This document shows positions 31,838-55,419 of a stretch of 64,000 bases of DNA, piece by piece. This DNA comes from Deltaproteobacteria bacterium (GTDB lineage: Bacteria > Myxococcota_A > UBA9160 > SMWR01): positions 14,443-78,442 of the forward strand of contig JANNIY010000067.1 in the NCBI GenBank assembly GCA_031405455.1. The letters run 5' to 3'. A program made the position numbers and the translations under genes. How positions within the stretch are numbered: the stretch's first letter is position 1; each line of letters opens with the position of its first letter. The notes under the pieces are model-generated. The model saw only the letters and a program-made list of their open reading frames with translations, ran no database searches and was not told the DNA's origin.

Positions 31838-32248
31838 TCAGTCCGGTGGCCCCTTGAGTTCGACGACGTTGCCGTCGGGATCGCGCACGTACATCGACGG
31901 GCCCATTCCGAGTGCGCCGTAGCGCGTCGCGACGTCGCCTGGCTCGACGGCAAACGCGCTGAGCTGCGCCGCAATGCGCGCCGCGTCGAAGTGCGCGAGC
32001 TGCAGGGCGATGTGGTCGACGTTGCGCGCCTGCGGGCCGGCCGCCGGCCCGCCGAGTTTTCCGAGCGGCGAATCGACGACCACGAGATCGATCAGGTTCG
32101 CCCCCGCGCGCAGCTGCACGAGACCGAGCGCGTCGCTGCGGCGCTCTTCGGAGCAGCCGAGCATCTCGACGTAGAAGCGCAGCGAGCGCGCCAGATCCGC
32201 GACGCGCAGCACGACATGATCGAGGCCGCGAATTTCGATCGCCTTCAA
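31838..32248 (-). CDS. VOC/glyoxalase family protein
   Basis: LDHVVLRV, DHIAL, YVRDPDGNVVEL. Confidence 0.9.
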   Translation of the reverse strand: MKAIEIRGLDHVVLRVADLARSLRFYVEMLGCSEERRSDALGLVQLRAGANLIDLVVVDSPLGKLGGPAAGPQARNVDHIALQLAHFDAARIAAQLSAFAVEPGDVATRYGALGMGPSMYVRDPDGNVVELKGPPD

Positions 32249-33945
32249 CGCAGGATCACCTCGAAGGGGCGGGCGGCGTCGCTGCCACGGTAGACGATCT
32301 CGTGAGGCCCAGCGATCCGAACCGAAACGAATGCGGCGTCGCCCTCATGATCGACGTAGCGCTGGATCGCGACCCGTTCCGGATCGATCGCGCGCACGCT
32401 GTCGAGGAACGCCGGTCCGACCGCGAACACCGCGAAATCCCGATCCCAGAGCAGGTATCGCACGTGCTCGTCCCCGGCGAAGCGGAGCGGAGCCTCTCCC
32501 TGGCTCATGCGCGCCAGCCTCCAGATCGGCTCTCGCAGCTCGAGCCGGCGGTCGAGAAAGCGCAGACGCGCAGCGAAGCCCCAGTCGAGGCTCACCGCCA
32601 CCACGCCGGGCTCCGCGGCGAGTTCGCGCGCCAGCTCCGAGATGGCATCCGACCAGCGCCCCTTTCCGTGTGTACGCTCGATCGTGTCGAAGGTGCGCAG
32701 GCTCGTCAGCAGGCTTCCGCCGATTGCGAGCACCGCTGCGCAAACCGCCACGGCGCGGCGCGCGCCCGAGCGCGGGGCGGCGGCGAGCTTCACGATCGCG
32801 GCGGCGACCAGCATTTGCGGAAATGGATACGCGCCGAGCACGTGGTGGATGCGGACGGCGCGGGGTGTCGCCAGGATGGCGAGTGAAGAAAGCACCGCGG
32901 CCGCGAGCACGAAGGCGACGGCAGGGTCGAATTCCGGCCTGCGCACGCGGGGCGCGAGCCAGCAGAGCAGCCAGACGATCGCGAGAGCGTAGAGGACGAG
33001 AAACGGGCCCGACGCCGCGCTGGAGACGTCGAACATGCGCTCGAAGCTGCCCCCGGCGAGCATCAGGCGGTCGAAGTACGAGCCGTCGAGCATGCTGCGA
33101 AGCGCGCCGAGCTTCTCGCGCCAGACTTCGCCCCCCGAAGCGGTGGCGAACAGGCCCTGCGTCACACGCAGCGCGGAGCCGATCTCGATCAGCATCGGCG
33201 CTGCGCCGAGCAGGAAGCCGGCCGCGGGCGGCAGCAGCCTGGGGAACTGCGAGCGCAGGGCCTGCGCGACGCTGCGCGGCGCGACCCCGACGAGCGCGAG
33301 CGCGGTCGCGGCGAGCGGCACCGCGAAATCGAGCTTGTTGTAGAGGCCGAGTCCGAGACAGAGTCCGGCGGCAAACGTGCGCGTGTGCGACTTCTGGCTC
33401 CATCCCGTTGCGAACAGGTAGAGCCCGGCGCAACGGCACAGGTGGGCGAGCGCGAAGGAGCCCCAATCGTGGCGGCCCACGCAGAGCAGGCTCGGATCGA
33501 CAGCCAACAGCGCGCCGGTGAGGAGCGCGGCAGCGCGCCCGAGCAGCTGATGCGCGAGCAGCATGGCAAACCCGATCGAAAGCAGGCTCCACGCCAGTGT
33601 CGTGAGCCGCAGGCTCACGTCCGAGGCGCCGAAGACCGCGAAAACGGGGATCAGGAGCTGGCTCTTGAGCGCGCCCATGTAGGGTTGCGTGAACACCGGT
33701 AGCCAGCGTCCGAAGAGCCGCGTGCTATCCGCGCCTGGGATCTCGAGAGGCCGGCCGTCCGCCGCCAGGAACTCGCTCGCGGGCACGGCCTGGATCACTT
33801 CGTCGTAATAGAGCCCGGGAGCCGAGAGATCGCGCGCCGCGAGCGCGAGGGAGAGCACGCACAGCGCCAGCCATGCTCCGACGAGGATTCGCACGTCGGA
33901 ACGCTGCGCGGCGCGCGCGTCGACGCGCAGAGGCTCAGGCGTCAC
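32245..33945 (-). CDS. GT-C membrane glycosyltransferase (GT39/ArnT/PMT-like)
   Basis: GLYYDE after first TM helix, PYMGALK, multiple TM segments, LYNK; start approximate. Confidence 0.75.
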   Translation of the reverse strand: MTPEPLRVDARAAQRSDVRILVGAWLALCVLSLALAARDLSAPGLYYDEVIQAVPASEFLAADGRPLEIPGADSTRLFGRWLPVFTQPYMGALKSQLLIPVFAVFGASDVSLRLTTLAWSLLSIGFAMLLAHQLLGRAAALLTGALLAVDPSLLCVGRHDWGSFALAHLCRCAGLYLFATGWSQKSHTRTFAAGLCLGLGLYNKLDFAVPLAATALALVGVAPRSVAQALRSQFPRLLPPAAGFLLGAAPMLIEIGSALRVTQGLFATASGGEVWREKLGALRSMLDGSYFDRLMLAGGSFERMFDVSSAASGPFLVLYALAIVWLLCWLAPRVRRPEFDPAVAFVLAAAVLSSLAILATPRAVRIHHVLGAYPFPQMLVAAAIVKLAAAPRSGARRAVAVCAAVLAIGGSLLTSLRTFDTIERTHGKGRWSDAISELARELAAEPGVVAVSLDWGFAARLRFLDRRLELREPIWRLARMSQGEAPLRFAGDEHVRYLLWDRDFAVFAVGPAFLDSVRAIDPERVAIQRYVDHEGDAAFVSVRIAGPHEIVYRGSDAARPFEVILR

Positions 33946-33973
33946 GCGGCCCGCCTGCTGCTTCCCTTGACCT

Positions 33974-35035
33974 TTGCGCACCCGCCGCGCACGTTCCCGC
34001 GCAACCCGGAGAGGTCCGCGCCTGAGCGACATCGCCTTGTATCAGCGTCACATCCATGCCCTCGGCGCGGCGTCGCAGGCGACGCAGCACGTGACGCCGT
34101 GTCTCGTCTGCGGCTCGCCGCAGGCCCGCGCCGCCTTCGCGATCGAGGGCTTCGAGCCGCGGCTGTTCGTTTGCGCCGACTGCGGGCTCGGGCGTCTGCA
34201 TCCGATGCCCGATCCCGACCAGATCGGATCCTTCTACCCGAGCGAATACTACGGCGAGCCTGGTCACAAGTTCCAGAGCGTCGTCGAACGTCTGGTGCGT
34301 TGGGTCGGTGAGCGCCACATCCGCTTCCTTTCGCGGGAGCTGCGTGCGGGGGCGCGCGTGCTCGACGTGGGCTGCGGAAGAGGCGTGATCCTCGGCGCGC
34401 TGGCGGATCACGGCTTCGAGGTGCACGGAGTCGAAATTTCGCTCGCAGCCGCGCAGGGCGCCGATCCGCGCGCCGAGATCCGGATCGCGGCGAGCCTCGG
34501 CGCTGCGGGGTATCCGACGGCGCATTTCGACGAGATCGTGATCTGGCACGTGCTCGAGCACCTGCACGATCCCAAGGCGACTCTGCTCGAAGCGCGTCGG
34601 ATCCTCAAGCCCGGCGGTCGCCTGGTGGTGGCGGTGCCGAATTTCTCGAGTCTTCAGGCGCGTGCGACCGGCGCCGCGTGGTTTCACCTCGATCTGCCCC
34701 GCCATCTGTGGCACTTCCCGCTCGCAGCGCTGCGCAAACTGATGTCCGATTGCGGTTTCGAAGTGCGCTCGGAGCACCACTTCTCCCTGCGCCAGAACCC
34801 GTTCGGCTGGGTTCAGAGCGTGCTCAATTGCGTGCCCGGTCTGCCGCGCAACGCTCTCTACAGCCTGCTGCAACGCCGCGCACCCGCCGAAGCCCCGCCC
34901 TTCGGCCGCGCGACCCGGGCCGGGTTGTGGCTCGCGTTTCTCGTCGGAACGCCACTCGGCCTGCTCGCGACACTGGCTGAAACCGTCCTGCGCAGCGGGG
35001 CGACGGTTCATCTCGTCGGCGTTCGTCATTCCTGA
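33974..35035 (+). CDS. Class I SAM-dependent methyltransferase with N-terminal zinc ribbon
   Basis: CLVC...CADC, VLDVGCGRG, WHVLEHL, LKPGG, DLPRHL. Confidence 0.9.
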   Translation: MRTRRARSRATRRGPRLSDIALYQRHIHALGAASQATQHVTPCLVCGSPQARAAFAIEGFEPRLFVCADCGLGRLHPMPDPDQIGSFYPSEYYGEPGHKFQSVVERLVRWVGERHIRFLSRELRAGARVLDVGCGRGVILGALADHGFEVHGVEISLAAAQGADPRAEIRIAASLGAAGYPTAHFDEIVIWHVLEHLHDPKATLLEARRILKPGGRLVVAVPNFSSLQARATGAAWFHLDLPRHLWHFPLAALRKLMSDCGFEVRSEHHFSLRQNPFGWVQSVLNCVPGLPRNALYSLLQRRAPAEAPPFGRATRAGLWLAFLVGTPLGLLATLAETVLRSGATVHLVGVRHS

Positions 35036-36681
35036 AAGCTGCGCCGCTCGCGGTAGAGCGCGAGCCGCTCGCGCAACGGCTGCGTGAGCGCCGGCGCTTC
35101 GCTCGCCTCCGATTCCCGCACCGCGCGCTGCGCCGTCTCGACGGCCGCGTCGAAGCGACCCGCTGCGGCGTAGGCCGCGGCGAGCGTATCGAGCACGGAC
35201 GGGTTCGGCGCTCTCGAAAGCGCCAACGCCCGCTCGGCCAGGCTCACCGCCGTCGCGGGGTCGCGCAGTGCGGGATCGCGGGCCGTCGCGAGCAGCCAGG
35301 CGAGATTGTTCGCCGCCTTCATGAAATCCGGTCGGATCCGCACCGCCTCGCGGTAGTGTCGGATGGTCTCGTCGAGACGGCCTCGCTCCGCGTAGGCCGC
35401 GCCCAGCTGCGTGTGGGCAATGGCGTTCTCCCCGGTCACCGCGAGCGTGTGCTCGAACAGGCTGACGCTGTCGTGCCAATGACGGAGCTGCAGGCGCGTC
35501 GTGATCGCCAGGGATGCGACGACGAACACGGCGAGCAGCGCGAACGCCGCGCGCCGGCGGGCGCCGAGCAGTTCTGCCGCGCCCCAGGCGAGCGCGATCG
35601 CGAGGCCAGCGAGGGGCAGGTACATGTAGCGATCCGCATGCGCCTGCGAGCCCACCTGGATGATTCCGATCGTCGGCACGAGCATGCCGAGGAACCACAG
35701 CCAACCCACGGCGAGATAGCCGCGCCGCGGCCAGTTGCGCAGCGCGAGCAGCGTGAGGCCGAGCAGCAGCGCCGCGGCGAGGCACGCCTTCCAGAGCGCC
35801 AGCCCCGCGCCGGGGTGCGGATAGAGCACGCCGAGCCCGCTCGGCCAACCGAATTGCCGCAGGTAGATGGCGTAGGCGACGAGCGCGTTCGCCATGCGGT
35901 CGCCGAGCGAGACCCGTTCGAACGACGCCACCGCGCCCGACGCCGACTGCGAATGCCAGGTCACGAACGAAATCGCCGCGACGAGAAGGAACAGGGGGAG
36001 CTTCTCGCTCAGCGCGCGGGCGAGGCGCTGCGCATCCGGGTTCCTGGAGCCACGGGCGAGTCTGCCGAGCGGCCACGCGTCGAGCAGGAGCAATACGCAC
36101 GGAAGCGTCACAAGCGTGGATTTGGCGAGCAGTCCGAGTGCGAGACTCGTGAACAACGCGAGCTTCGCCGCAAAGGGTTTGCGCGCGCGCGCAACCGCCG
36201 CGAAGGCGATCAGCGCCAGCATGCAGAAGACGCCGGAGAGCACGTCCTTGCGCGCCGAGATCCAGGCGACCGACTCGACGTGAAGCGGGTGGACGGCGAA
36301 GACGGCGGCGGCAAACAGGCTGCGCGACCGCTCGCCCGTGAGATCCGAAAGGGCCCAGAAAAACAGCGCGCTCGCGAGGGCGTGGAGCAGCAGGTTCGTG
36401 AGCAGGAAGCCGCCGGCGTCGAGCCCGTAGAGCTCGAGGTCGAGCAGCCACGAGAGGCGTGTCAATGGGAACCAGTTCGCCTGATGCTGTGTCGTGAGCG
36501 CCCAGCCGACGCCTTCCCAGCTGATCCCGCGCTGGAGCTCGGCGTTGTGGGTGATGCCGAGGTCGTCGTCGTAGTTCAGCCACTCGTGCCCGCGAATCGG
36601 GAGGTAGACGACGCTCGCGAGGACGAATACGAGCGCAGCCAGGGCGCCGCGCGAGCGTGCGGCGGCTAGTGCGCGCGCCAC
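35026..36681 (-). CDS. TMTC-like GT-C glycosyltransferase with C-terminal TPRs
   Basis: NYDD, NWFPLT, HPLHVESVAW...RKDVL, ADRYMYLP, TPR NNLAWLLA; start approximate. Confidence 0.82.
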   Translation of the reverse strand: MARALAAARSRGALAALVFVLASVVYLPIRGHEWLNYDDDLGITHNAELQRGISWEGVGWALTTQHQANWFPLTRLSWLLDLELYGLDAGGFLLTNLLLHALASALFFWALSDLTGERSRSLFAAAVFAVHPLHVESVAWISARKDVLSGVFCMLALIAFAAVARARKPFAAKLALFTSLALGLLAKSTLVTLPCVLLLLDAWPLGRLARGSRNPDAQRLARALSEKLPLFLLVAAISFVTWHSQSASGAVASFERVSLGDRMANALVAYAIYLRQFGWPSGLGVLYPHPGAGLALWKACLAAALLLGLTLLALRNWPRRGYLAVGWLWFLGMLVPTIGIIQVGSQAHADRYMYLPLAGLAIALAWGAAELLGARRRAAFALLAVFVVASLAITTRLQLRHWHDSVSLFEHTLAVTGENAIAHTQLGAAYAERGRLDETIRHYREAVRIRPDFMKAANNLAWLLATARDPALRDPATAVSLAERALALSRAPNPSVLDTLAAAYAAAGRFDAAVETAQRAVRESEASEAPALTQPLRERLALYRERRSFQE

Positions 36682-37886
36682 GGCGGCATCCAGTCGGGCA
36701 TGAAGCCCGGGGCGTCGAAGAGCGTGCGGCCCTCGCGATCGAAGACGACCACATGCGTCGCGGCCAGTGCGTCGCGTTCGGCGAGCTTGGGCTGTCCGAC
36801 GTGATCGGGAACCGCGATCGCAGCCACTCGCTCGCCGTCCGGCGACCAATGGGGGGCATAGTAATTGCGGGCGGGGTCCGAGCCGAGCGGACGCAGCGCG
36901 TCACCGGAGAGCGTCGCGAGGTACAGGGCGGAGCCGCCGTCGCGATCCGAGACGAAGACGATCTCGTCGCGCCGCGGAGACGGGCGCGCGGAATGGTCGT
37001 CGCTCTCCGCGCCGCCCACGAGCGTGCGGGGGGCGCCGCCACGCGCGGAAATCGCGAGGATGTCGGAGCGTCCGCCAGCGGCCGGGCGCCGCGAGAAGAA
37101 GATCTCGCTGCCATCGCGCGAATAGCTGGGCTTCATGTCGAACCAGGCCGGATCCCGGGTGAGCGGTTTCGCCGCGCCGTTCAGGTCGATCGTCCACAGA
37201 CCCGAGCCCCGCCCCTGCGAGCTGCGGCGCTGCGCTACGAGCGCGGCGCCATCGGGTGCAAAGCTGGGCCGCAGGAAGAAATCCCGTGGCCCCGTCGCGA
37301 CGAGCAGCTGGGGAGTCCGGCTCGCAACGTCGGCGAGCCCCAGGCCGGCGGGGGGATCGCCTCCCCGGAACGCGAAGGCGAGCTGCGGCCGCAGCGGTGA
37401 CCAGACCGGCCACTGCTCATCGCGCTGCGGCGAACGTGCGATCGCCGTCGTGGCTCCCTGCTCCGGATCCCAGAGCCAGAGATCGTGCGACACGCCATCG
37501 CTCGAGGCCTGGTACGCGAGGCGCTGCGCCGGTTCGGACCAGTAGGGCCACGTCTCTTCGATGTCCGGCGTCGCAGTCAGCGGCTGCGCCAGCGAATCGG
37601 AGAGGCGCACGCGCACGAGCTCGCTCGATGCGCCCACGATCCGCACCAGCACGAGCCCATCGGACGTCGTCTGGCCGAAGCGCGGAGACGGATCGCCACA
37701 GGCGGCGAGAGCGATCGCTACGAGGATTCCCGCGGCGCCTTGGTAGACTCGCCAGCGATGTCGCAGCGGGACGCCGGGCAGGCAGCGCAGGTGCGGCGAC
37801 GCGCGGTCGGCCCCGGCGCCGGCTCGCTGCTGATTTTCGCCGGGTTCGCCGGGATCGCGCTCTTCGTCTATCGGGCGGCGCTTCAC
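36666..37886 (-). CDS. TolB-like PD40 beta-propeller lipoprotein
   Basis: Lipobox LAAC; repeated PxWSP/PSFAP/PHWSPDG; true start likely nearer 37766. Confidence 0.8.
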   Translation of the reverse strand: MKRRPIDEERDPGEPGENQQRAGAGADRASPHLRCLPGVPLRHRWRVYQGAAGILVAIALAACGDPSPRFGQTTSDGLVLVRIVGASSELVRVRLSDSLAQPLTATPDIEETWPYWSEPAQRLAYQASSDGVSHDLWLWDPEQGATTAIARSPQRDEQWPVWSPLRPQLAFAFRGGDPPAGLGLADVASRTPQLLVATGPRDFFLRPSFAPDGAALVAQRRSSQGRGSGLWTIDLNGAAKPLTRDPAWFDMKPSYSRDGSEIFFSRRPAAGGRSDILAISARGGAPRTLVGGAESDDHSARPSPRRDEIVFVSDRDGGSALYLATLSGDALRPLGSDPARNYYAPHWSPDGERVAAIAVPDHVGQPKLAERDALAATHVVVFDREGRTLFDAPGFMPDWMPPWRAH

Positions 37887-39443
37887 GGGCCGTTCCTCTC
37901 GGACGATTTCGGGTACATCGTCAGCAACCCCTACACGAGTTCACTCGCGTGGGAGAATTGGCTCGCGATCCTGGATCCGTTGGGACCTGCGCGCCTGTAT
38001 ACGGCGAATTACGCCCCCGTCCACCTGCTGCTCACGGCGCTCGAACGCCAGATCTTCGCCGACGATCCCTTCGGCTACCACATCATCAACGTGCTGCTGC
38101 TGGCGGCCGACTCGACCCTGCTCGTGGCGCTGTTGCGGGCGTCGGGGTTGCCGGCGCTCGCGGCGCTCGTGGCGGGAGCCGTGTTCCTGCTGCATCCCGC
38201 GAACGTCGAGGCCGTCGCCTGGGTCTCCCAGCTCAAGAGCGTAGCGGCGTTGGCTTTGGCGCTCGGCGCGCTGCGGCTGCATCCGCGCCGGCCGGCGCTC
38301 GCGGCGCTGGCGTTCGCCCTGGCCTTGCTCACGAAGGCCTCGGCGGCCTTTGCCTGGCCCATGTTGTGCGCGCTCGCCTGGGCGCGGCGCCCGGCGCCCG
38401 ACGCCGCGCGGCGCGAGCTGGGCTGGCTCGCGCTCTGGGGAGTGCTGCTGTTGTTGTTTGCGTTGCCGGAATTCGCATCCTTCGCTGGCGCGGGCGCCGC
38501 CGAAACCACCGCGTTCGCGAGCGCGGCGGATCAGATCCGGACGATCGCCGCGATTGCTGCGCGCTATCTCGTGATGGCGGCAACAACCTTCGGCGTCGCC
38601 GCCTACCAGGAACCGGCGCCGGTGGGATCGTGGCTCGATCCCTGGTGGCTGGCCGCGCTTCCCGCCGCGGGCGTGCTTGCGTGGCGCGTGACGAAGACAT
38701 TGCGTGCGCGCGAGCCCGAGGCGGCGTGGTGGCTCGGCGCGATCGCCGGATGGGCGCCGGTGTCCCAGCTGTTTCCGTTCCTGAATCCGATCGCCGATCG
38801 CTATCTCTACTTCATGCTGCCGGGGTTGATCGGCGGCGCGTCGTTCTGGCTCGCCTCGGCCCTCCGCGGGGTTGCGCTGCGACGGGCGGCGGTGGCGCTC
38901 GCGGCGGTCGTGGCGACCGTCTTCGCGTTCGCTGCGAGCGAGCGGGCGCGTCTTTGGCGCGACGAGACGTTGCTGCTGGTCGATGCGGCCCGTCACTATC
39001 CCGACGGGGGGACGGCGTACTACCTGAGCGCGCGGCGCGCGGCGCAGCAGGGAGACGCGACGGCTGCAGTGGCCGCGCTGCGCGAAGCGTCGCTGCGCGG
39101 GATCGACCGTTTCACGGCTCTCGAAGGCGATCCATCGCTCGCGCCCGTCCGGGACACGCCGGAATTCCGTGCGTTGATCCGAGACATGGCAGGAGCGTGG
39201 CTCGAGCGCGGCTACCGCCGCGGACACGACACGCCGGCGGACCTGCGCATGCTGGCGCATGCCCACAGCGTACGCGGCGAGTACGCTCGAGCCGCGGAGC
39301 TGCTCGAACGGGCGCTCGCCACGGACAGCCCGTTCGCTGCAGCCCTGCGCGAGGAGCTCGCAGCCGTTCGGCTTCAGGAGCAGAGCGAGGCCGCGCCGGC
39401 CCCGGCTCTGGAGGAGACTCGCGATCGCCCGCCGAGCCCGTAA
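37758..39443 (+). CDS. TMTC-like GT-C glycosyltransferase, paralog A
   Basis: FLSDD, NYAPVH, HPANVEAVAWVSQLKS, ADRYLYF, helical/TPR C-terminus. Confidence 0.8.
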   Translation: MSQRDAGQAAQVRRRAVGPGAGSLLIFAGFAGIALFVYRAALHGPFLSDDFGYIVSNPYTSSLAWENWLAILDPLGPARLYTANYAPVHLLLTALERQIFADDPFGYHIINVLLLAADSTLLVALLRASGLPALAALVAGAVFLLHPANVEAVAWVSQLKSVAALALALGALRLHPRRPALAALAFALALLTKASAAFAWPMLCALAWARRPAPDAARRELGWLALWGVLLLLFALPEFASFAGAGAAETTAFASAADQIRTIAAIAARYLVMAATTFGVAAYQEPAPVGSWLDPWWLAALPAAGVLAWRVTKTLRAREPEAAWWLGAIAGWAPVSQLFPFLNPIADRYLYFMLPGLIGGASFWLASALRGVALRRAAVALAAVVATVFAFAASERARLWRDETLLLVDAARHYPDGGTAYYLSARRAAQQGDATAAVAALREASLRGIDRFTALEGDPSLAPVRDTPEFRALIRDMAGAWLERGYRRGHDTPADLRMLAHAHSVRGEYARAAELLERALATDSPFAAALREELAAVRLQEQSEAAPAPALEETRDRPPSP

Positions 39444-44100: not shown

Positions 44101-44208
44101 GAACACGAAAGCGAACTCCCGCGTCCACGCGGTCTCGTAGAGCAGGGCCGCGAAGCCGGAAAACAGGAAACACAGCAACACCAGCGGAAAGCGGAGCGCT
44201 GCCGTCAT
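41158..44208 (-). CDS. Fused membrane (MFS-like)/spermidine synthase-like SAM-binding protein
   Basis: SGFAALLYETAW, LMGATLP, LYAVNTAGA repeats; IGLGGA, NDAR, SQPSHPW, LYTREFF. Confidence 0.88.
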   Translation of the reverse strand: MTAALRFPLVLLCFLFSGFAALLYETAWTREFAFVFGTSELAVVSVLAAYMGGLAAGAGVAARLAPRVRRPVLVYGLLELAIAVSALAVPSAIRAATALHALFFGGLPAPPAAGQLTSALFYLLCSFVILLVPTGLMGATLPLLARQAVRRDEEIGRRVGLLYAVNTAGAVLGTSCAAFVLLPAIGLRSTVYVGAAVNALVFALAALLARGAGEVAPASEAPAAAAGGARAAGASWILPLVMLSGVASFSYEVLWTRLLGHVLGGSVYAFATMLASFLTGIALGSAVASRLASTGERAGRGFALAQLGVAALSLAAFSAIEEIPALARSIGAGGTGSLAANAAISVLVLLPGAVCIGATFPFAVRRLARDSAAASAASAHVYAWNTVGAIVGAIAAGFWLLPNLGFEGTVAGAAALNLAIAIACACFSRPIDRRLLAVAVAGLVALAVFLPSTPWVLLRTSPISPRSAVGEVAYSRVGRSASVLLVDDGRNFWLTTNGLPEASISRGDLESPGRYLETRWLGLLPILANPDASSLLMIGLGGAKALEAVPSTVASVGVIELEEEVVQANQSVGSLRGLDPLADPRVQIYVNDARGALALTSARFDTITSQPSHPWTAGASHLYTREFFSLVRDHLAPGGVFVQWIGLGFVDGPLLQTLVATLLDVFPSVRLYQPTPGAVLFLASDGDLPMDALVAQALAAAPADFIRYGLRVPEDVAAACVLGPDGARAFAAGAPINTDDHNLLAARSAGLGPRALRANGLRRLLAAYPPLVESDTSLDHLYLVRRLAATSAIDRAAALARSLPDPVDRETALGFVQRARGERLSAARSFGRALALDANAVEARFGLLEARRVAVEQGEPALLELAKPLPPAAAAVVAGWRAEARDDFDAIRRLEANLAQARPREAAFVPATLLRAEWRIRSGDAALAAEGLTLVDGIIAVAAEPADLLLRARAAAGAGQQDVALATLEDFIGVLPRHPSSHGSAREALGILDGLTQVEAADRAAQVRANLRQLLQ

Positions 44209-44252
44209 GCGTGCCTTTCTAAACACAATATCATGTATGTTTGGGCGCCGTG

Positions 44253-46730: not shown

Positions 46731-46741
46731 CGCGCGACGGC

Positions 46742-49204: not shown

Positions 49205-49280
49205 CGCGAGCGAGGACCTCCGGACAACGAGAGAAGCGCTGAGTATACGCGGCACTTCGGGCACGTCGACGCGGCAAACG

Positions 49281-51563
49281 ATGTTTGTGGCGGGCGCGCT
49301 GCTGCGCGCGCAGGGTTCGTTCCGATGCAGTTCCCGGGGCCATCTGCTCGCGCTCTCGGCGATTGCCCTGCTCGCCGCACAAGCCTGCGAAAAACCGCCG
49401 GCCGCGGCGCCGGCTCCCGAACGCATCCTGCTCGTCAGCATCGACACACTCCGCGCGGACCACGTCGGTAGCTACGGAGCCGAGCGCGCCTCCACACGGA
49501 ATCTAGACGCGCTGGCCGCCAGTGGAGTTCGCTTCGACGCCGCGGTTTCCCCGGCGCCGCTGACCTTGCCATCGCACACCTCGCTGATGACCGCGCTCGA
49601 TCCCCCTGGCCACGGGGTGCGGCACAACGAGGTCTTCCGGCTTCCGGACGCGGTTCCCACGCTGGCCGAGCACTTGAAGCAGGCGGGCTACGCGACCGCG
49701 GCCGTCGTGGGCTCGTTGGTGCTCGATCGCCGCTATGGGCTCGCGCGCGGCTTCGATTTCTACGACGACCGGATGGGTGAGCGCGTGGCGGGGGGCGCGG
49801 GTTGGCCCGAACGCCGGGCAGATCAGGTCGTCGACGCCGCGATCGCGCGGCTCGCTTCGCTCGGCCCACGCTTTTTTCTCTGGGTGCACTTCTACGACCC
49901 GCACCTGGCGTATGACCCGCCGCCCGGCTTTGCGAGCGCGTTTCCGACCCGGCCCTACGCCGGCGAGGTGGCCTTTGTGGATGCGCAGCTCGGAAGACTC
50001 CTGCAGGCGCTGCGCGAGCGCTACGGAGACAGCGGGTTGTTGGTGGTTGCGACGAGCGACCATGGCGAGAGCTTCGGAGAACACGGCGAGGAGACGCACT
50101 CGTATTTCCTCTACGAAACGACACAGCGGATTCCCCTGGTGTTCGCCGGCCCGGGCATTCCCGCCGGCCGCAGCGTCGCGGCGCCGGTGGGGCTGGTGGA
50201 CGTCGCGCCGACCGTGCTCGCGCTCGCGCACGCGGAGCCGATCCCCGGCGCCGCCGGCCGCGATCTGCAGCCGCTGTTTGCGGGCGAGAGCGCTGCGCCC
50301 GCGAATGCCTACTTCGAAACGCTGGCGACGCAGCTCGATTTCGGTTGGAGTCCGTTGCTCGGTTTGCGCCAGGGAAACTTCAAGTACATCCGCGCCCCGC
50401 GGCCGGAGCTGTATGACCTGGTGGCGGATCCGGCGGAGCTGCATAGCCTCGCGCTCGAGCGCCCCGACCTCGCCGCCTCGCTCGACGCGGCGCTTACGAA
50501 GCGATTGCAAGCCTCACCGCAAGGCACCGCGACACCGCTGGCGGTGACGCCCGCCGAACGCGAGCAGCTGGCGAGCCTCGGCTATCTCGCGCCCGACGGT
50601 TCCGCCTCGTTGCTGCCGCTCGGCCAGGTCGGGGGACACGACCCCAAGGATCAGGTCGCCGTGCTCGCCGAGATCCGGGGCGCGCAAGCCCTGATGGCAC
50701 AGGGCAAGGCCGGCGAGGCGCTCGCGCGTTTGCGCGCGATCGGAGAGGCCGGGCCCGGCGTCGCCGCGCTGCGCGCAGCCGCGGCGGTCAACGCCGGCGA
50801 GCCCGAGGCTGCCGAACGCGATGCGAGGCGGGTTCTGGCGGCGTCGCCGGATCGCAGTGATGTGCGCATCGTGCTCGCGCTCGCGCTCGATGCGCAGGGC
50901 CGCAGCCCCGAGGCGCTCGCGGTGCTGCGCGAGCTTCCGGGCGATGTGCCCCTGGACGCAGGCCTCGCGCTGAGGCTCGCTGCGGCGGAGGCGGAGGCGG
51001 GCGAGCTCGACACGGCGTTGCGTCGTCTTGCGCTCGCCGTCGAGCATCATCCACGGGATCCGGACCTCGCGCGCAGCCATGGCCAGCGACTCGCCGGGGC
51101 GGGACGACCCGAGGCGGCGCTCGCGGCCTTCGAAGCGGCGCTGGCGCTCGAGTCCGATTCCAGCGTGCTTCAGAACGACGTCGCACGGGCGCTCGCGCTT
51201 CAGCGTGGCGATCTCGACCGCGCCCTTGCGCTCGCCGTGCGCGCCGCCGCCGCGAGCGAGAACGCCCCGAGCGTGCTCGACACTTTGGCGATCGTGCGGC
51301 TCGCGCGCGGAGAGGCCGGCGAGGCGCTCGCGGTGGCCGAGCGCGCGTTGCGAACCGCTCCACCGGGCCTGCGACCCCACCTGGAGTACCTGCGCGCGGA
51401 GGCATTCTTCGCGCTCGCTCGGCCGCTGGAAGCGCGCCAGGCGCTCGCCCTGGCGCGGGCCTCGGCGGCTGCCGACGAGGCCGAATGGCGCGCGGGGGCG
51501 GAAGCCCTCGACGCCCGGTTGGCCCGGCCGTCGACGAAACCAGCTTCCCCGCCCGTGGAATAG
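49281..51563 (+). CDS. Sulfatase-like (alkaline phosphatase superfamily) lipoprotein with C-terminal TPRs
   Basis: Lipobox AQAC, IDTLRADH, TLPSH, HFYDPH, SDHGE, LASLGY, then TPRs. Confidence 0.85.
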   Translation: MFVAGALLRAQGSFRCSSRGHLLALSAIALLAAQACEKPPAAAPAPERILLVSIDTLRADHVGSYGAERASTRNLDALAASGVRFDAAVSPAPLTLPSHTSLMTALDPPGHGVRHNEVFRLPDAVPTLAEHLKQAGYATAAVVGSLVLDRRYGLARGFDFYDDRMGERVAGGAGWPERRADQVVDAAIARLASLGPRFFLWVHFYDPHLAYDPPPGFASAFPTRPYAGEVAFVDAQLGRLLQALRERYGDSGLLVVATSDHGESFGEHGEETHSYFLYETTQRIPLVFAGPGIPAGRSVAAPVGLVDVAPTVLALAHAEPIPGAAGRDLQPLFAGESAAPANAYFETLATQLDFGWSPLLGLRQGNFKYIRAPRPELYDLVADPAELHSLALERPDLAASLDAALTKRLQASPQGTATPLAVTPAEREQLASLGYLAPDGSASLLPLGQVGGHDPKDQVAVLAEIRGAQALMAQGKAGEALARLRAIGEAGPGVAALRAAAAVNAGEPEAAERDARRVLAASPDRSDVRIVLALALDAQGRSPEALAVLRELPGDVPLDAGLALRLAAAEAEAGELDTALRRLALAVEHHPRDPDLARSHGQRLAGAGRPEAALAAFEAALALESDSSVLQNDVARALALQRGDLDRALALAVRAAAASENAPSVLDTLAIVRLARGEAGEALAVAERALRTAPPGLRPHLEYLRAEAFFALARPLEARQALALARASAAADEAEWRAGAEALDARLARPSTKPASPPVE

Positions 51564-51572: not shown

Positions 51573-51664
51573 ACCCGCGTCCGACACGCGAATATGTTTC
51601 CGGCGGGGAATGGAAATCTCTTCGATTCCAGTCCTTTGGAAACCAGTGTCTGGCCGCGAAGAGT

Positions 51665-51680
51665 TGGCACTTTCGTTGCA
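51665..51680 (+). promoter_or_regulatory. sigma54 promoter of PEP-CTERM gene 1
   Basis: TGGCACTTTCGTTGCA. Confidence 0.9.
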
Positions 51681-51768: not shown

Positions 51769-52644
51769 ATGCGGAGACTATGGGTCCTGCTTGCGGCCGC
51801 GATGTTGGCCCTTGGGGTCGGCGTCTCGGCCAGCGCGAGGCCGCTCAATTTCGAGGGCACGTTCTCAACGGCCATCGGAACCGAGCTCCCCGTGCTCGAC
51901 AACACGCTCGGCGGTGTTGCGACCGTCAACAACTCGGCTGGGGCGATTCCGTCCCACTTGAACACGCTGCGGATTGCAGGTAGCCGGGGCGGCGGCGCCA
52001 CTTCGGCGATGATCGCCATCACGGATCCGGCGGTGGCGGCGAATGGGATCGCGTCGATCCGCATCAACTCGGAACTCGGCACGGGCACGTTCGCGCCGAT
52101 CTCCGGTGGTGCGGCCTCGACGACCGTGCTGACGAAGCGGCAGCTTCCGGTCCGCGGCCTGTCGAAGGTCTGCCTGCTGTCGACACAGTGCACGAACTTT
52201 CTGCCGCTCCAGCTGACGCAGCACATCGCGACGAGCGCGGTGAAGGGTGTTGGCATCGGCGGTCTGATCACGATCGGCGGCGGCACCAACCCGATCCGGA
52301 TTTCGATCGAAGCGGCGCCGTGGACGATCAAGGTGGGGACGAAGATCGACCAGATCACGACCCCGATGACGATCGGTGGCGTCAAGAAGTTCGTCAACAT
52401 CACGGGGATGGGCTTCGCTCACGACCCCAGCTCGGCCACGACCAACACGGCGCAGCCGTCGGGCGTGGTGCAGCTGATCTCGCCCATGCAGATCGTCACG
52501 AACCTGACCTCCGGCAGCAACGCGAAGCTGTCGCTGTTCAGCACGCTCCGGGTTCACTTCATCCCGGAGCCCGGTTTGCTGGTCCTGCTCGGCTCGGGTG
52601 TTGCCGGCCTCGTCCTGCTGGGCCGCCACCGCATGCGCAAGTAG
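51769..52644 (+). CDS. PEP-CTERM sorting-domain surface protein 1
   Basis: Sec signal peptide (ASA), Ser/Thr/Gly-rich body, IPEP + TM helix + RHRMRK. Confidence 0.93.
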   Translation: MRRLWVLLAAAMLALGVGVSASARPLNFEGTFSTAIGTELPVLDNTLGGVATVNNSAGAIPSHLNTLRIAGSRGGGATSAMIAITDPAVAANGIASIRINSELGTGTFAPISGGAASTTVLTKRQLPVRGLSKVCLLSTQCTNFLPLQLTQHIATSAVKGVGIGGLITIGGGTNPIRISIEAAPWTIKVGTKIDQITTPMTIGGVKKFVNITGMGFAHDPSSATTNTAQPSGVVQLISPMQIVTNLTSGSNAKLSLFSTLRVHFIPEPGLLVLLGSGVAGLVLLGRHRMRK

Positions 52645-52645
52645 T

Positions 52646-52701
52646 TCGGGTCCGGTTCCACCGGTCCCGACCGGGCGGCCACCTCGAAAAGGGGTGGCCG
52701 C
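52646..52701 (+). terminator. Tandem 3' hairpins after PEP-CTERM gene 1
   Basis: TCGGGTCCGG...CCGGTCCCGA then GCGGCCACC...GGTGGCCGC; no immediate U-tract. Confidence 0.6.
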
Positions 52702-52767
52702 CCCCTGCGCCTCCCTCCTTGCTTCTTTGCCCCGCGGGGCTTCCGGGAAGATGCTTTTCCCACTTTA

Positions 52768-52784
52768 CGGAAAAGTCTTTCCAC
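52768..52784. promoter_or_regulatory. Putative enhancer site CGGAA-N6-TTCCAC (second copy GGGAA-N7-TTCCC at 52745-52761)
   Basis: Ends 94 nt before the sigma54 site, matching the spacing at gene 1. Confidence 0.6.
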
Positions 52785-52838
52785 AGAGTCTTTCAAGAGC
52801 TTCCTTTCGCATTGCCAGCTCCATGGAAACGCCTTATT

Positions 52839-52851
52839 AATCAAGGCGTTG
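52839..52851 (+). promoter_or_regulatory. IHF binding site
   Basis: AATCAAGGCGTTG matches WATCAANNNNTTR, between enhancer and sigma54 promoter. Confidence 0.65.
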
Positions 52852-52877
52852 CGTAGTGGCACCCAGGGCTCCGTGCT

Positions 52878-52893
52878 TGGCACCAGAGTTGCA
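52878..52893 (+). promoter_or_regulatory. sigma54 promoter of PEP-CTERM gene 2
   Basis: TGGCACCAGAGTTGCA. Confidence 0.9.
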
Positions 52894-52988
52894 CCTGAAC
52901 TCGCCAGACGGGATCGGAGCGCGTGGGCTACCGTCGCGAGTCGAATCCGTCGCTAGGTTTGAAACGAATCGAAACAGGAGTCCAGCAA

Positions 52989-53861
52989 ATGCGAAAATTA
53001 TTCATGTTAGGCGCCGCGGCGCTGCTCGCGTTCGGCGTTGTGAATACGGCGAGCGCCAACCCGCTCAACTGGGAAGGCTCGATGCTTCTCGAGCTCGGCG
53101 ACCTGCCGGCGCTCGGTAACACCGGTGGCGGCGTGGCGACGGTCAACAACTCGGCCGGCTCGATTCCCGCCCATCTCCAGACGCTTCAGCTGAAGGCCAG
53201 CCGCGGCGCGATCGCCGGAACCGCGATGGTTCCGATCACCGACCCGACCGTGTCGGCCAACGGCATCTCGTCGATTCGCGTACAGGCGACGATGCAGACG
53301 GGCACGTTCGCGCCGATCTCCGGCGGTGCGGCCTCGACGACCGTGCTGACGAAGCGGTTCCTGCCGGTCAACGGCCTCGCGAAGGTCTGCCTGCTCTCGA
53401 CGCAGTGCACGAACTTCCTGCCCCTCCAGCTGACGCAGCACATCGCGACGAGCGGCGCGAAGGGCCTCGGCCTCGGTGGCCTGCTCACGATCGGCGGCGG
53501 CACCAACCCGATCCGGATTTCGATCGAAGCGGCGCCGTGGACGATCAAGAACGGCGTTGTGATCGACCAGATCACGACCCCGATGACGATCGGTGGCGTC
53601 AAGAAGTTCATCAACCGCACGGCCATGGGCTTCGCTCATGACCCCAGCTCGGCCACGACCAACACGGCGCAGCCGTCCGGTGTGGTGCAGCTGATCTCGC
53701 CCATGCAGGTGGTGACGAACCTCACCTCCGGCAGCAACGCGAAGCTCGCGCTGTTCGGTTACCTCACGGTTCACTTCATTCCGGAACCGGGCATGCTGTT
53801 GCTGCTCGGCTCGGGTGTTGCCGGCCTGATCCTGCTCGGCCGACACCGCATGAAGAAGTAG
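52989..53861 (+). CDS. PEP-CTERM sorting-domain surface protein 2 (paralog of gene 1)
   Basis: SD AGGAG, signal peptide, IPEP + TM helix + RHRMKK; long blocks identical to gene 1. Confidence 0.93.
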   Translation: MRKLFMLGAAALLAFGVVNTASANPLNWEGSMLLELGDLPALGNTGGGVATVNNSAGSIPAHLQTLQLKASRGAIAGTAMVPITDPTVSANGISSIRVQATMQTGTFAPISGGAASTTVLTKRFLPVNGLAKVCLLSTQCTNFLPLQLTQHIATSGAKGLGLGGLLTIGGGTNPIRISIEAAPWTIKNGVVIDQITTPMTIGGVKKFINRTAMGFAHDPSSATTNTAQPSGVVQLISPMQVVTNLTSGSNAKLALFGYLTVHFIPEPGMLLLLGSGVAGLILLGRHRMKK

Positions 53862-53862
53862 T

Positions 53863-53926
53863 TCAGATCCGGACACACCGGGTTTGATGCGGCGGCCACC
53901 CCGAAAGGGGTGGCCGCTTTGCTTTT
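53863..53926 (+). terminator. Tandem 3' hairpins ending in a Rho-independent terminator
   Basis: TCAGATCCGG...CCGGGTTTGA; GCGGCCACCCC-GAAA-GGGGTGGCCGC followed by TTTGCTTTT. Confidence 0.85.
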
Positions 53927-54006
53927 GGACGCCTCACTTCGGGAATCATGGCCACCCGCTCCCGCGCTTGTTAGATTCGGCCACCCTTCGACGGGAGACG
54001 CTGCGG

Positions 54007-55419
54007 ATGCTGCGCAAGTTGTTCGACTCGCCCTGGCCCTACTTCGTCGCAGCGACGCTGCTCGTCGGGCTTGCGGTGGCAACCCAGTTCGAAATTGCGG
54101 AGCCCGCCCGCCCCGAGGGCGGCGCTTCCGACATCGGCAAGCTGAGCGAACGCAAGGATCTGAACGTCGTCTTTCTGCTCGTCGACACGCTGCGGGCCGA
54201 TCGTCTCGGCGCTTATGGCTACGGGCGTCCCACGAGCCCGGAGATCGACGAACTCGCCCGCACCGGGATCGTCTTCCGGAACGTCTACTCGCAATCGAGC
54301 TGGACGAAGACCTCGATGGCTTCGCTCTGGACGGGGACCTTCCCCGCGAAGAACGGCATGTTGCGCTTCGACCAGGTGTTGCCCGAGGAGGCGACGCTTC
54401 CGGCGGAGATCCTCAAGAACGCTGGCTTTCGAACCGCGGGGATCTGGCGCAATGGCTGGGTCGCGCCGAATTTCGGGTTCCAGCAGGGCTTCGACTTCTA
54501 TGTGAATCCGAAGCCCGGTCGCGAACGTGAACAGCTGCAGCGCAATCACCCCTCTCCGGAATCGCTCTCCGGGACTGACGAGGACATCGCCGAATCGGCG
54601 AGCGCGTTCCTCGAGAGCTATGGCCGCGAGCGCTTCTTCATCTATCTGCACTTCATGGATCTGCACCAGTACGTTTTCGACGAGGCGGCACCCGATCTCG
54701 GCAATGCCTACTCCGATGCCTACGACAAGTCGGTCTCGTGGATCGATCGCCTGATTGGATCGCTCGTCAAGCGGCTCGATGAGCAGGGCGTCCTCGATCG
54801 GACCGTGATCGTGCTCGCATCGGATCACGGAGAAGCGTTCCGCGAGCACGGCCATGAGGGCCACGCGCGGAACCTCTACCGCGAAGTCGCTGAGGTCCCC
54901 TTCGTGATCGTGCTTCCCTTCCGGCTCGAGCCCGGAATCGTCGTCGAGCAACGGGTTGCGAACGCCGACATCTGGCCGACGCTCCTCGCTCTGCTGGGTC
55001 TGCCGGCCCTGCCGGGCGCGGACGGCAAGTCGCTGCTGCCGCTCGTCGAGCACGCCGCCGGCCTCACGCCCGAAGTGCCTGCGGATCTCGCATCGCGCAC
55101 GATCTTTTCACAGCTCGACCGGAACTGGGGCGCTCCCGACCAGAAGTCCGACCCGCTCGTCGCCGTAACCGACGGAAACTTTCGTTTCTTCATGCAGATC
55201 GCCCGGCCAGAGCGAGCCGAGCTCTACGATCACACCGCCGACCCGGGCGAAAAACAGAACCTCTCGGCGGAGCGCGCCGAAGACGTCGCGCGGCTGCGCC
55301 AGATCACGGACGGCTATCTCGAGAAGTCGCAGAGCCCCTGGGGCAAGGCGCCCGAATCGGTCGAGATCGACGAGCTGCGCCTGAACCAGCTGCGCGCGCT
55401 CGGCTACGTCATCAAGTAG
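54007..55419 (+). CDS. Membrane-anchored sulfatase-like (alkaline phosphatase superfamily) enzyme
   Basis: N-terminal TM, VDTLRADR, WTKTSM, HFMDLH, SDHGE, LRALGY. Confidence 0.87.
   Translation: MLRKLFDSPWPYFVAATLLVGLAVATQFEIAEPARPEGGASDIGKLSERKDLNVVFLLVDTLRADRLGAYGYGRPTSPEIDELARTGIVFRNVYSQSSWTKTSMASLWTGTFPAKNGMLRFDQVLPEEATLPAEILKNAGFRTAGIWRNGWVAPNFGFQQGFDFYVNPKPGREREQLQRNHPSPESLSGTDEDIAESASAFLESYGRERFFIYLHFMDLHQYVFDEAAPDLGNAYSDAYDKSVSWIDRLIGSLVKRLDEQGVLDRTVIVLASDHGEAFREHGHEGHARNLYREVAEVPFVIVLPFRLEPGIVVEQRVANADIWPTLLALLGLPALPGADGKSLLPLVEHAAGLTPEVPADLASRTIFSQLDRNWGAPDQKSDPLVAVTDGNFRFFMQIARPERAELYDHTADPGEKQNLSAERAEDVARLRQITDGYLEKSQSPWGKAPESVEIDELRLNQLRALGYVIK

Follow-up and report, generated by a model that had tools for sequence, protein, structure and literature searches.

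A persistent PEP-CTERM unit and a separable set of candidate periplasmic enzymes in an uncultured Myxococcota order

A stretch of 64,000 nucleotides from a Deltaproteobacteria bacterium (GTDB lineage Bacteria; Myxococcota_A; UBA9160; SMWR01; contig JANNIY010000067.1 of assembly GCA_031405455.1, positions 14,443 to 78,442, forward strand), referred to below as the window, contains 13 adjacent envelope genes, g1 to g13, two of which encode PEP-CTERM proteins (Table 1). We tentatively propose, with somewhat less than even confidence, that they make up an envelope locus specific to one lineage, an uncultured order of Myxococcota, with a fixed place between uvrD and ddl, in which periplasmic enzymes guided by tetratricopeptide repeats (TPRs) act on proteins sorted by exosortase. 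Gene content, folds, catalytic-site motifs, promoters, terminators, and co-location are what we observe in this DNA, and they resolve into two layers. The first is a small persistent unit composed of g9 (a long TPR lipoprotein), one to five sigma-54-driven PEP-CTERM genes (PEP genes), g13, and often g10; g10 and g13 encode alkaline-phosphatase (AP)-fold enzymes with a threonine nucleophile. The second is a larger set of periplasm-facing enzymes, g1 to g6 and g8, joined in some genomes by g7, and it includes four membrane proteins of the glycosyltransferase C (GT-C) type.

We postulate that Sec would export the PEP-CTERM proteins, whose C-terminal helix would keep them anchored in the inner membrane. 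The GT-C/TPR enzymes could then add sugars from polyprenyl-phosphate carriers on the periplasmic side, with the TPR arms selecting the protein, and the Thr-type AP-fold enzymes could add or remove a phospho-substituent. An exosortase encoded elsewhere, on contig C58, would then cleave and sort the PEP-CTERM proteins. We infer every chemical step of this scheme and the identity of every substrate. The original prediction, which was made from the letters of the window alone, proposed O-glycosylation; our emphasis has moved from O-mannosylation to the Thr-type enzymes, O-glycosylation of the g11 and g12 proteins being pure conjecture, and nothing among the analyses that we ran supports the S-layer-like coat that was also envisaged. 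Glycosylation of PEP-CTERM proteins has been suspected and RpoN-dependent PEP-CTERM genes have been described (PMC9850573, PMC12188702).

The whole cluster recurs in two relatives of the same genus (G001 and G002; G000 denotes the window's own genome, other labels of this type denote relatives, and C67 is the window contig) and in two of other genera (G009 and G016), and it is found rearranged in another family (G038). Further loci from metagenome-assembled genomes (MAGs) carry it whole (L026 to L028) or rearranged (L031). The locus occupies the same chromosomal place in G015, G020, G004, G028, G030, G033, and G038, with glmS/uvrD on one side and/or ddl, accompanied by the conserved genes h1 and h2, on the other. 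Within this frame, the PEP gene or genes, g10, and g7 are inserts whose presence varies; g10 is missing from G004, which does have a PEP gene, and G028 has five PEP genes in tandem. Rearranged versions in G038, G028, G033, and on contig C175 of G013 keep the same gene families together. The main locus of G013, on contig C102, has three tandem PEP genes; a second copy of the theme (C175:1-12000, L127) contains a PEP gene, a g6-like GT-C gene, two Thr-type AP-fold genes, and two g3-like fragments.

Of the 16 loci read, 11 have a PEP gene immediately adjoining a g13-type gene, three contain g13 and no PEP gene, and two are truncated at contig ends. The order g9-PEP-g13 is found in G027 and G036. 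More broadly, g9 adjoins a PEP gene, either directly or with g10 alone between them, in G000, G004, G027, G036, and G038, and it stands beside a PEP gene and/or g13 in G004, G015, G020, G027, G030, and G036. When coordinates were compared by hand, a PEP gene was found ≤3 kb from a g10- or g13-type gene in 18 of the 34 PEP-bearing genomes; G004, G030, and G036, added by reading tblastn matches, bring this to 21/34, spread over families f1, f2, f4, f5, and f7. A g5/g6-type pair lies on the same contig as a PEP gene and ≤25 kb away from it in 13 of the 34. Many of the remaining genomes are too fragmented for adjacency to be judged, and because kin are not independent, these counts overstate the case. 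Since enzyme loci without a PEP gene exist and G030 has no GT-C gene, the most persistent partners of the PEP genes appear, on gene order, to be g13 and g9 rather than the GT-C genes; the GT-C/TPR set is frequent and separable.

Exact sigma-54 elements (TGGCAC-N5-TTGCA) precede g11 and g12, their 3' ends lying 89 and 96 nt, respectively, upstream of the start codon. They are two of only three exact matches in the window and two of the 24 strict sites in the 4.7-Mb genome. With up to two mismatches allowed, the pattern is not enriched in the window (17 found versus 17.98 expected), and therefore the weight rests solely on the exact matches, their position, and their conservation. The element, with ≤1 mismatch, precedes 12 of the 16 distinct homologues that have enough upstream sequence, from several genera and families, and the PEP gene of G004 is also preceded by it. 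Promoters of the g12 type add a TTTCC-N8-9-GGAAA inverted repeat, placed ~121 to 124 nt ahead of the -24 element; among the 15 upstream regions of homologues, 8 have it (5 by a strict pattern and 3 by a relaxed one). In the whole genome, a strict sigma-54 site is combined with such a repeat solely at the g11 and g12 promoters, and within the window the repeat is confined to these two genes. The sigma-54 control of PEP-CTERM genes foreseen in the original prediction is borne out by these exact promoters, conserved across genera, and they agree with the RpoN dependence of pepA of Aquincola (PMC9850573).

Stable hairpins follow both genes. The same pair is found after g11 and after g12, a short hairpin and then a 13- to 14-pair G+C-rich one; by eye, the second hairpin appears to be kept in the G001 orthologue with altered loop and stem letters. 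Because the exact promoters are conserved and the 3' hairpins are stable, each PEP gene appears to be a separate, monocistronic, sigma-54-dependent unit with its own terminator, and the enzyme genes are not visibly co-regulated.

The second element of the persistent unit is the Thr-type enzyme, a label that the original prediction had applied correctly. At the position where sulfatases form formylglycine, both g10 (T-L-P-S-H) and g13 (T-K-T-S-M) have threonine, and the downstream arginine is replaced. In an alignment to a solved sulfatase, the threonine falls on the serine of S-T-P-A-R, and the metal-binding Asp and Asp-His are retained. Established sulfatase chemistry implies that formylglycine cannot form where C/S-x-P-x-R is replaced in this way, and within the AP superfamily a Thr nucleophile suggests phosphoryl transfer rather than hydrolysis of sulfate esters. 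By this reasoning g10 and g13 would act by phosphoryl transfer and not as sulfatases. Their best sequence matches among solved structures are S1 sulfatases (E 1e-25 to choline-sulfatase), and both fall far under the cut-offs of the NCBIfam sulfatase equivalogs. The organism does possess ordinary sulfatases, since the same window encodes a canonical Cys-type enzyme (C-A-P-N-R-A-T-L-M-T-G; Sulfatase and SGSH_C domains; signal peptide) at 18096-19811 on the minus strand.

The threonine is invariant across g10 orthologues, and when 120 g10-like genes drawn from 80 loci in many phyla were aligned, 119 carried it (as T-L-P-S-H in 65 and as T-L-P-A-H in 20). Counted with one genome per species, this g10-like family comprises at least 586 confirmed stretches; they come from MAGs labelled Myxococcota/“Deltaproteobacteria,” Acidobacteriota, Planctomycetota, Gemmatimonadota, and others. 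Its “sulfatase-like” genes are often fused to TPRs and often occur in tandem arrays of 2 to 4 copies (e.g., L045, L051, L065, L081, and L089). The sulfatase annotation of this T-x-P-S/A-H family is probably wrong. We considered and rejected a general association of g10-like genes with PEP-CTERM genes, 72 of the 80 anchored loci having no PEP-CTERM-type open reading frame (ORF) in their flanks. In three loci, all from Planctomycetota (L038, L048, and L091), a PEP-CTERM-type ORF directly adjoins the g10-like gene, and L091 also has a g7-like gene nearby.

Tests against EptA/CptA/LtaS/OpgB-type phosphotransferases found the Thr nucleophile and the metal ligands in both enzymes. The NCBIfam models for these proteins gave at best ≤38.2 bits against cut-offs of ≥404, and the multi-helix membrane domain was not found, g13 having one hydrophobic segment and g10 a lipobox. 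Phosphoethanolamine transferases of the AP fold, PptA and EptC, modify proteins (PMC4010543, PMC10525099).

The original prediction also counted four GT-C-type proteins and spoke of TMTC-like GT-Cs; our analysis supports four, three of them TMTC-like in architecture. The g1 protein scores above the Pfam cut-off for PMT_2 (PF13231; 37.5 bits against 26.1), has a D-E motif after its first transmembrane segment (TM1) and ~8 hydrophobic segments, and has orthologues within the cluster in G001, G002, G015, G020, G024, G033, and G038. For g3, g5, and g6, no Pfam GT-C family, PMT_2 included, was matched even at E ≤ 10, and TPR families were the only ones found (in g6, also NF047558 TPR_END_plus at 39.2 bits). 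An alignment of 14 orthologues and paralogues of g5/g6 from relatives has S-D-D after the first helix in all 14, together with the motif H-P-A-N-V-E-A-V-A-W (H-P-x-x-V-E-x-V-A-W); g3 has D-D-D after TM1 and the motif F-A-V-H-P-L-H-V-E-S-V-A-W. In TMTC proteins, the first luminal loop carries a conserved DD motif, and a segment of TMTC3 ends in F-A-V-H-P-I-H-T (PMC7801869). In hhalign, the g5/g6 profile matched the g3 family (99.7% probability, E 4.3e-26, 499 columns) and did not match the g1 family (5% probability).

Searches of PDB sequences with the g3 and g5/g6 profiles returned TPR proteins and no solved membrane protein, and a search of the ESM Atlas with g3 returned TPR-named clusters only. 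An AlphaFold2 model of g5 (predicted local distance difference test [pLDDT] 84.7, predicted template modeling score [pTM] 0.84) has ~11 to 13 long helices ahead of the TPR part. Foldseek gave no match to this model at E ≤ 0.001, its top rows being almost all GT-C enzymes, and we assign the GT-C fold to g5-type proteins on the basis of a second look with VIA-align, in which rows 1 to 46 among the 50 matches listed are GT-C-fold proteins that cover model residues ~8 to 410. No solved TMTC structure is among the listed structural matches. The TMTC signature DUF1736 (PF08409), proposed as a check, was not found: g3, g5, and g6 gave no match to it even at E ≤ 10, and a six-frame search of the genome gave none on contig C67. 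Membership of these three proteins in the DUF1736-defined TMTC family is thus not supported.

An alternative hypothesis is that these enzymes decorate lipid A or the lipopolysaccharide (LPS) core, following the logic of ArnT and EptA, or an exopolysaccharide (EPS), following that of BcsG-type enzymes and TPR export scaffolds, and that the PEP-CTERM proteins are co-located polymer binders. We regard this as doubtful, though far from negligible. It would account for the placement of g1 in PMT_2, a family that also covers ArnT-like lipid A transferases; for the weak matches of g13 to EptA, CptA, OpgB, LtaS, and YejM models; for the likeness of the long TPR lipoproteins g8 and g9 to polysaccharide-export scaffolds (weak matches to PgaA, BcsC, and AlgK); and for the survival of the enzyme cluster without a PEP gene in G015, G020, and G024. 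PEP-CTERM proteins are moreover thought to retain EPS at the cell surface (PMC9850573). The TPR arms on GT-C, AP-fold, and SAM (S-adenosylmethionine)-fold enzymes, with TPR matches to OGT, argue against a glycan or lipid substrate. TPR-fused enzymes, such as TMTC and OGT, typically recognize proteins. In addition, the membrane domain found in EptA- and LtaS-type enzymes is absent from g10 and g13, genes for a synthase, a flippase, or Wzx/Wzy-type proteins are not among the families matched in the cluster, and the recurring adjacency of PEP gene and g13 over five families would go unexplained.

The PEP-CTERM proteins themselves share a mature domain in which two Cys and several Gly, Pro, and Trp residues are invariant, and they end in F-I/V-P-E-P-G, a hydrophobic helix, and R-x-R-M-R/K-K. 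P-E-P-G is invariant in 14 of 14 homologues, and signal peptide, P-E-P, helix, and basic cluster are all present. The curated models fall short: PF07589 gives 17.5 bits for g11 and 20.1 bits for g12, just under its cut-off of 20.7; TIGR02595 matches 5 of 14 family members at E ≤ 0.01, g11 not among them; and no NCBIfam PEP-CTERM subfamily exceeds its cut-off for this family. The PEP-CTERM identity given to these proteins at the outset is upheld by the tail architecture, the signal peptide, and the exosortases in the genome, and not by the PF07589 and TIGR02595 cut-offs. Their description as Ser/Thr-rich was right as to enrichment, Ser and Thr making up 21.7% (g11) and 19.7% (g12) of the mature domain; the enrichment is moderate, in a conserved globular domain and not in low-complexity sequence. 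An AlphaFold2 model of the domain built from 14 sequences (pLDDT 49.8, mostly beta strands) was set aside as too poor for a structure search.

A profile of the 14 homologues, searched against 1.84 billion representatives, found 1894 at E ≤ 0.001, 764 at ≤1e-10, and 283 at ≤1e-30. The nearest ESM Atlas cluster has 95 members and is annotated as PEP-CTERM; its commonest phylum label is Myxococcota, a label known for 3 members only. Within the order, the family is present in 34 of 41 genomes, G000 included, with four copies in G000 and up to 11 in relatives.

Sorting machinery is encoded elsewhere in the genome. As the original prediction had noted, the window lacks an exosortase: none lies on contig C67, and three PF09721 matches over the cut-off are on contigs C58, C33, and C20, with an XrtA-type EPS locus on C58. 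The C58 protein is a general exosortase (TIGR02602, 202 bits versus 105.55; XrtA, 203.5 versus 208), that on C33 an exosortase-EpsI fusion, and that on C20 XrtH (104.3 bits versus 86). The C58 EPS locus (55000-94000) includes a sigma-54 response regulator, a WecA-like transferase, and a GDP-mannose dehydratase, and its export, chain-length, ATPase, and Tyr-kinase genes each score close to, and under, the XrtA-system cut-off. An ArnC/AglJ-like polyprenyl-phosphate sugar synthase ~10 kb from the C58 exosortase is a possible source of donors for the window's GT-C enzymes. An LA_3751/LA_3752-like putative glycosyltransferase also lies ~10 kb from this exosortase. Downstream on C58 is a trio of histidine kinase, sigma-54 activator, and 891-aa TPR protein that resembles PrsK/R/T, all under cut-offs. 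Other PEP-CTERM-type ORFs adjoin the exosortase-EpsI fusion (C33:49100-53123) and the genome's best PrsT-like TPR gene, of 196 bits (C104:13074-15382).

The check proposed for exosortase and PrsK/PrsR succeeded for the exosortases and failed for the regulators, since no match to PrsT, PrsK, or PrsR (TIGR02917, TIGR02916, and TIGR02915) exceeds the cut-off anywhere in the genome. Near-full-length matches identify ~20 sigma-54 activator genes. The same distinction applies to the TPR lipoproteins g8 and g9, each with ~800 aa of TPR: they are long TPR lipoproteins beside PEP-CTERM genes, as predicted, and at 154 and 234.7 bits they lie under the PrsT (TIGR02917) cut-off of 312.2.

To our knowledge, no attachment has been demonstrated for exosortase products. 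A further hypothesis is that the cluster builds the acceptor, a glycolipid or glycan with a phospho-amine bridge onto which exosortase ligates cleaved PEP-CTERM proteins, as a bacterial counterpart of glycosylphosphatidylinositol (GPI) or type IX A-LPS anchoring; we consider this very unlikely. The enzyme classes of the cluster mirror what we take to be those of GPI assembly. Enzymes without an in-locus PEP gene would fit an acceptor shared by many of the ~27 PEP-CTERM proteins of the genome, and other sorting systems offer precedents: a related one attaches its substrate to a glycerophosphoethanolamine-containing moiety (PMC6219818), type IX cargo is joined to a glycolipid (PMC7468200), and archaeosortase substrates are lipid-anchored (PMC7157517). 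The structural matches, however, do not go beyond the GT-C fold in general, the exosortase genes are on other contigs, and G030 and G025 have no GT-C genes.

Put more broadly, g13 and g10 with the GT-C/TPR proteins might supply the missing downstream chemistry of exosortase sorting, either by building or remodeling a phospho-amine-bridged glycolipid or glycan that takes the cleaved PEP-CTERM proteins or by transferring or releasing these proteins from a phosphatidylethanolamine-type intermediate. We rate this as a long shot, if slightly less so than the acceptor alone. Were it true, the locus would encode an analogue of GPI anchoring in bacteria, and the T-x-P-x-H family (Acidobacteriota, Planctomycetota, and Myxococcota) would consist of protein- or glycan-directed phosphotransferases rather than sulfatases.

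Several observations weigh against our proposal that the TPR-guided enzymes act on exosortase-sorted proteins. G015 and G020 have g1 to g3, g5, g6, g8, g9, and g13 (G020 also g4) and lack g10, g7, and the PEP gene, paralogues of which lie elsewhere in those genomes. G024 has g1, g2, g4 to g6, g8 to g10, and g13 with no in-locus PEP gene, and no hit to the g11/g12 family was found anywhere in its genome. Conversely, between uvrD/glyoxalase and ddl, G030 has g9, g13, and a PEP gene only, with no g5-type GT-C gene in the genome at E ≤ 1e-20, and G025 has PEP-g13-g10-like without a g5-type GT-C. The cluster accounts for 2 of the ~27 credible PEP-CTERM-like proteins of the genome (29 tails by regular expression), and the enzyme genes have neither the sigma-54 site nor the upstream repeat of the PEP genes. 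No synthase for a polyprenyl-phosphate or other lipid-linked sugar donor is among the families matched in the cluster, and neither g10 nor g13 has the multi-helix membrane domain seen in known lipid-donor phosphotransferases. Outside the lineage, 3 of 74 g10-anchored loci without a window-type neighborhood have a PEP-CTERM-type ORF in their flanks, so membership in the large Thr-type family does not in general imply a link to PEP-CTERM proteins. Finally, glmS, uvrD, ddl, h1, and h2 are as collinear across the order as the cluster itself. Synteny alone is therefore weak functional evidence, inherited gene order being able to explain much of the co-location; the genes do lie together in relatives, as the original prediction had required.

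The last point also supports a reading in which there is no functional unit at all, and the locus is an old collinear stretch of unrelated envelope genes with mobile-like PEP-CTERM copies. Flanks as syntenic as the cluster are seen in G001, G002, G004, G009, G015, G020, G028, G030, G033, and G038; the 13 genes fall into at least six transcription directions or units, with the PEP genes having their own promoters and terminators; and the PEP gene, g10, and g7 are gained or lost between loci. We nevertheless think such a chance assembly unlikely. The same families cluster at 40 to 55% protein identity and after rearrangement (G038, G028, and G013:C175), the minimal loci of G030, G027, G036, and G025 keep a PEP gene and g13 (the first three also g9), and the direct adjacency seen in the three Planctomycetota loci speaks for more than inherited order.

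The methyltransferase gene g2 is syntenic in G001, G002, G015, G020, and G024. In g4, the TolB model TIGR02800 gives 61.5 bits against a cut-off of 343, which leaves TolB-like repeats only. The g7 fusion exceeds the cut-off of NF037959 (122.8 bits versus 40) and matches PF01564 at 36.5 bits, and SpeE (TIGR00417 and equivalogs) gives 44.9 to 55 bits against cut-offs of 249 to 260. It is present in G001, G009, and G033, with weaker g7-like matches in G038, and it was not hit in the loci of G002, G004, G015, G016, G020, and G024.

Since the G+C content of the window is ~70%, reading frames were picked by third-position GC (GC3). The 13 genes are ORFs with coding-type GC3 that tile 32245-55419, and the original inventory of ~23 kb of contiguous envelope genes proved correct, all 13 lying where it had placed them. 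Several start codons are uncertain, among them those of g2, g6 (probably near 39440), and g13 (probably 54007, downstream of the terminator stem at 53891-53918). The left flank consists of housekeeping genes (GlmU, GlmS, a UvrD-type helicase, and a small glyoxalase-fold gene) and the right flank of the D-Ala-D-Ala ligase gene ddl with h1 and h2.

Table 1. Genes, promoter regions, and 3' hairpins of the cluster, in window coordinates
Feature	Position	Strand	Assignment	Detail
g1	32245..34032	-	PMT_2/ArnT-like GT-C membrane glycosyltransferase with soluble C-terminal domain	PMT_2 37.5 bits
g2	33974..35035	+	Class I SAM methyltransferase with N-terminal Cys-pair motif and C-terminal hydrophobic helix	Methyltransf_23 105.8 bits; start uncertain
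g3	35026..36681	-	TMTC-like GT-C membrane domain with C-terminal TPR	TPR_1 39.6 bits; ORF open to 36849
g4	36666..37772	-	PD40 beta-propeller lipoprotein	PD40 32.5 bits (cut-off 20.9); lipobox L-A-A-C
g5	37758..39443	+	TMTC-like GT-C membrane domain with C-terminal TPR-like helices	
g6	39259..41097	+	Paralogue of g5	46% identity to g5; start uncertain, probably near 39440
g7	41158..44208	-	Fusion of major facilitator superfamily (MFS)-like membrane domain, spermidine-synthase-like (class I SAM-fold) domain, and C-terminal helical repeats	NF037959 122.8 bits
g8	44253..46745	-	Long TPR lipoprotein	Many TPR families; lipobox L-P-A-C; ORF open to 46970
g9	46742..49204	-	Long PrsT-like TPR lipoprotein; member of the persistent g9-PEP-g13 unit	Lipobox L-G-C; ORF open to 49447
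g10	49278..51563	+	Lipoprotein with AP-fold (Pfam Sulfatase) domain, Thr nucleophile (T-L-P-S-H), and C-terminal TPR; variable member	PF00884 135.3 bits; TPR_19 53.8 bits
g11 promoter region	51597..51680	+	Inverted repeat and exact sigma-54 -24/-12 element	Repeat 51597-51616; element 51665-51680
g11	51769..52644	+	PEP-CTERM protein, 291 aa	Signal peptide; ~240-aa mature domain; P-E-P/helix/basic tail
g11 3' hairpins	52645..52705	+	Two stable hairpins	z -5.0
g12 promoter region	52756..52893	+	Inverted repeat TTTCC-N8-GGAAA and exact sigma-54 element	Repeat 52756-52773; element 52878-52893 (~122 nt on)
g12	52989..53861	+	PEP-CTERM paralogue, 77% identical to g11	ORF open from 52923
g12 terminator	53862..53928	+	Tandem hairpins and U-rich tract	z -5.9; 12-pair stem 53891-53918, then T-run
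g13	54007..55419	+	Membrane-anchored AP-fold enzyme, Thr nucleophile (T-K-T-S-M)	PF00884 169.5 bits; ORF open from 53884

Outside the cluster, the third exact sigma-54 match of the window (8909-8924, minus strand) lies at the 5' end of a GH20 (beta-hexosaminidase-like) ORF at 6805-8925; the true start of this ORF may be further downstream, and the gene may be sigma-54 dependent. The adjacent ORFs h1 (282 aa) and h2 (293 aa), at 56632-58358 on the plus strand, have no Pfam match and are kept beside ddl in every relative examined, with h1 identity of up to 94%; they seem to lie outside the cluster.

Few sorted surface proteins of environmental bacteria are as common as PEP-CTERM proteins, and this locus gives concrete candidates for their decoration or for building their anchor: the PEP family itself, the adjoining Thr-type enzyme, and the nearby TMTC-like GT-C/TPR proteins. 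The theme of PEP-CTERM protein, exosortase, sigma-54, and TPR lipoprotein is known; its coupling to TMTC-like GT-C/TPR proteins and Thr-type AP-fold enzymes is an unpublished variant in the literature that we searched, which comprised main texts. No paper joining PEP-CTERM with TMTC-like enzymes was found there. The combination of PEP-CTERM, mannosyltransferase, and tetratricopeptide led only to a classical EPS locus (PMC3684757, in the excerpted text), and no link between PEP-CTERM and AP-fold enzymes was found, co-mentions of sulfatase and exosortase coming from excerpts of genome and proteome surveys. The organism is uncultured, its chemistry is deduced from genes, and the case from genome comparison is weakened by collinearity. 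That the members of so large a “sulfatase” family are unlikely to be sulfatases matters for the annotation of sulfur and carbon cycling in soils and sediments.

The closest known system is the XrtA/PEP-CTERM EPS system; Haft reportedly described the PEP-CTERM/EpsH system in 2006. The window locus shares with it the P-E-P/helix/basic C-terminus, an adjoining long TPR lipoprotein, sigma-54 promoters with an upstream repeat, and an exosortase and EPS locus in the genome (TIGR02595, TIGR02917, TIGR02916, TIGR02915; PMC9850573). It differs in that g8 and g9 are under the PrsT cut-off, PrsK and PrsR have no match over theirs, the g11/g12 family exceeds the cut-off of no NCBIfam PEP-CTERM subfamily, and the locus holds GT-C/TPR, Thr-type AP-fold, and SAM-fold enzymes in place of exosortase and EPS genes. 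With animal TMTC1-4 (PMC7801869), the GT-C proteins have in common an N-terminal multi-helix GT-C domain, DD in the loop after TM1, an F-A-V-H-P-x-H-type motif in an early helix, and a non-cytoplasmic C-terminal TPR; unlike those proteins, g3, g5, and g6 lack PF08409, have just 2 to 4 short TPR-like repeats, and are bacterial.

Among AP-fold enzymes, g10 and g13 resemble PptA, EptC, EptA/MCR, LtaS, OpgB, and BcsG in PF00884 fold, Thr nucleophile, metal ligands, and periplasmic location, with weak NCBIfam matches to CptA, EptA, EptB, OpgB, and LtaS. In contrast to that group, they have one helix or a lipobox instead of the five-helix lipid-binding domain, their sequences are nearer to S1 sulfatases, g10 has a TPR arm, and all curated cut-offs are missed. 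The S1 formylglycine sulfatases share PF00884 and provide the best solved-structure matches, but their C/S-x-P-x-R is T-x-P-S/A-H in g10 and T-K-T-S-M in g13. Rhombosortase/GlyGly-CTERM (PMC6219818), type IX C-terminal domain/A-LPS (PMC7468200), and archaeosortase (PMC7157517) systems likewise use a tripartite C-terminal signal that is removed by a membrane enzyme, and unlike the locus described here they are not known to include GT-C/TPR or TPR-fused AP-fold partners. In GlyGly-CTERM sorting in Vibrio, a glycerophosphoethanolamine-containing group is placed on the new C-terminus (PMC6219818), and a Thr-type phosphodiesterase or transferase could act on such chemistry.

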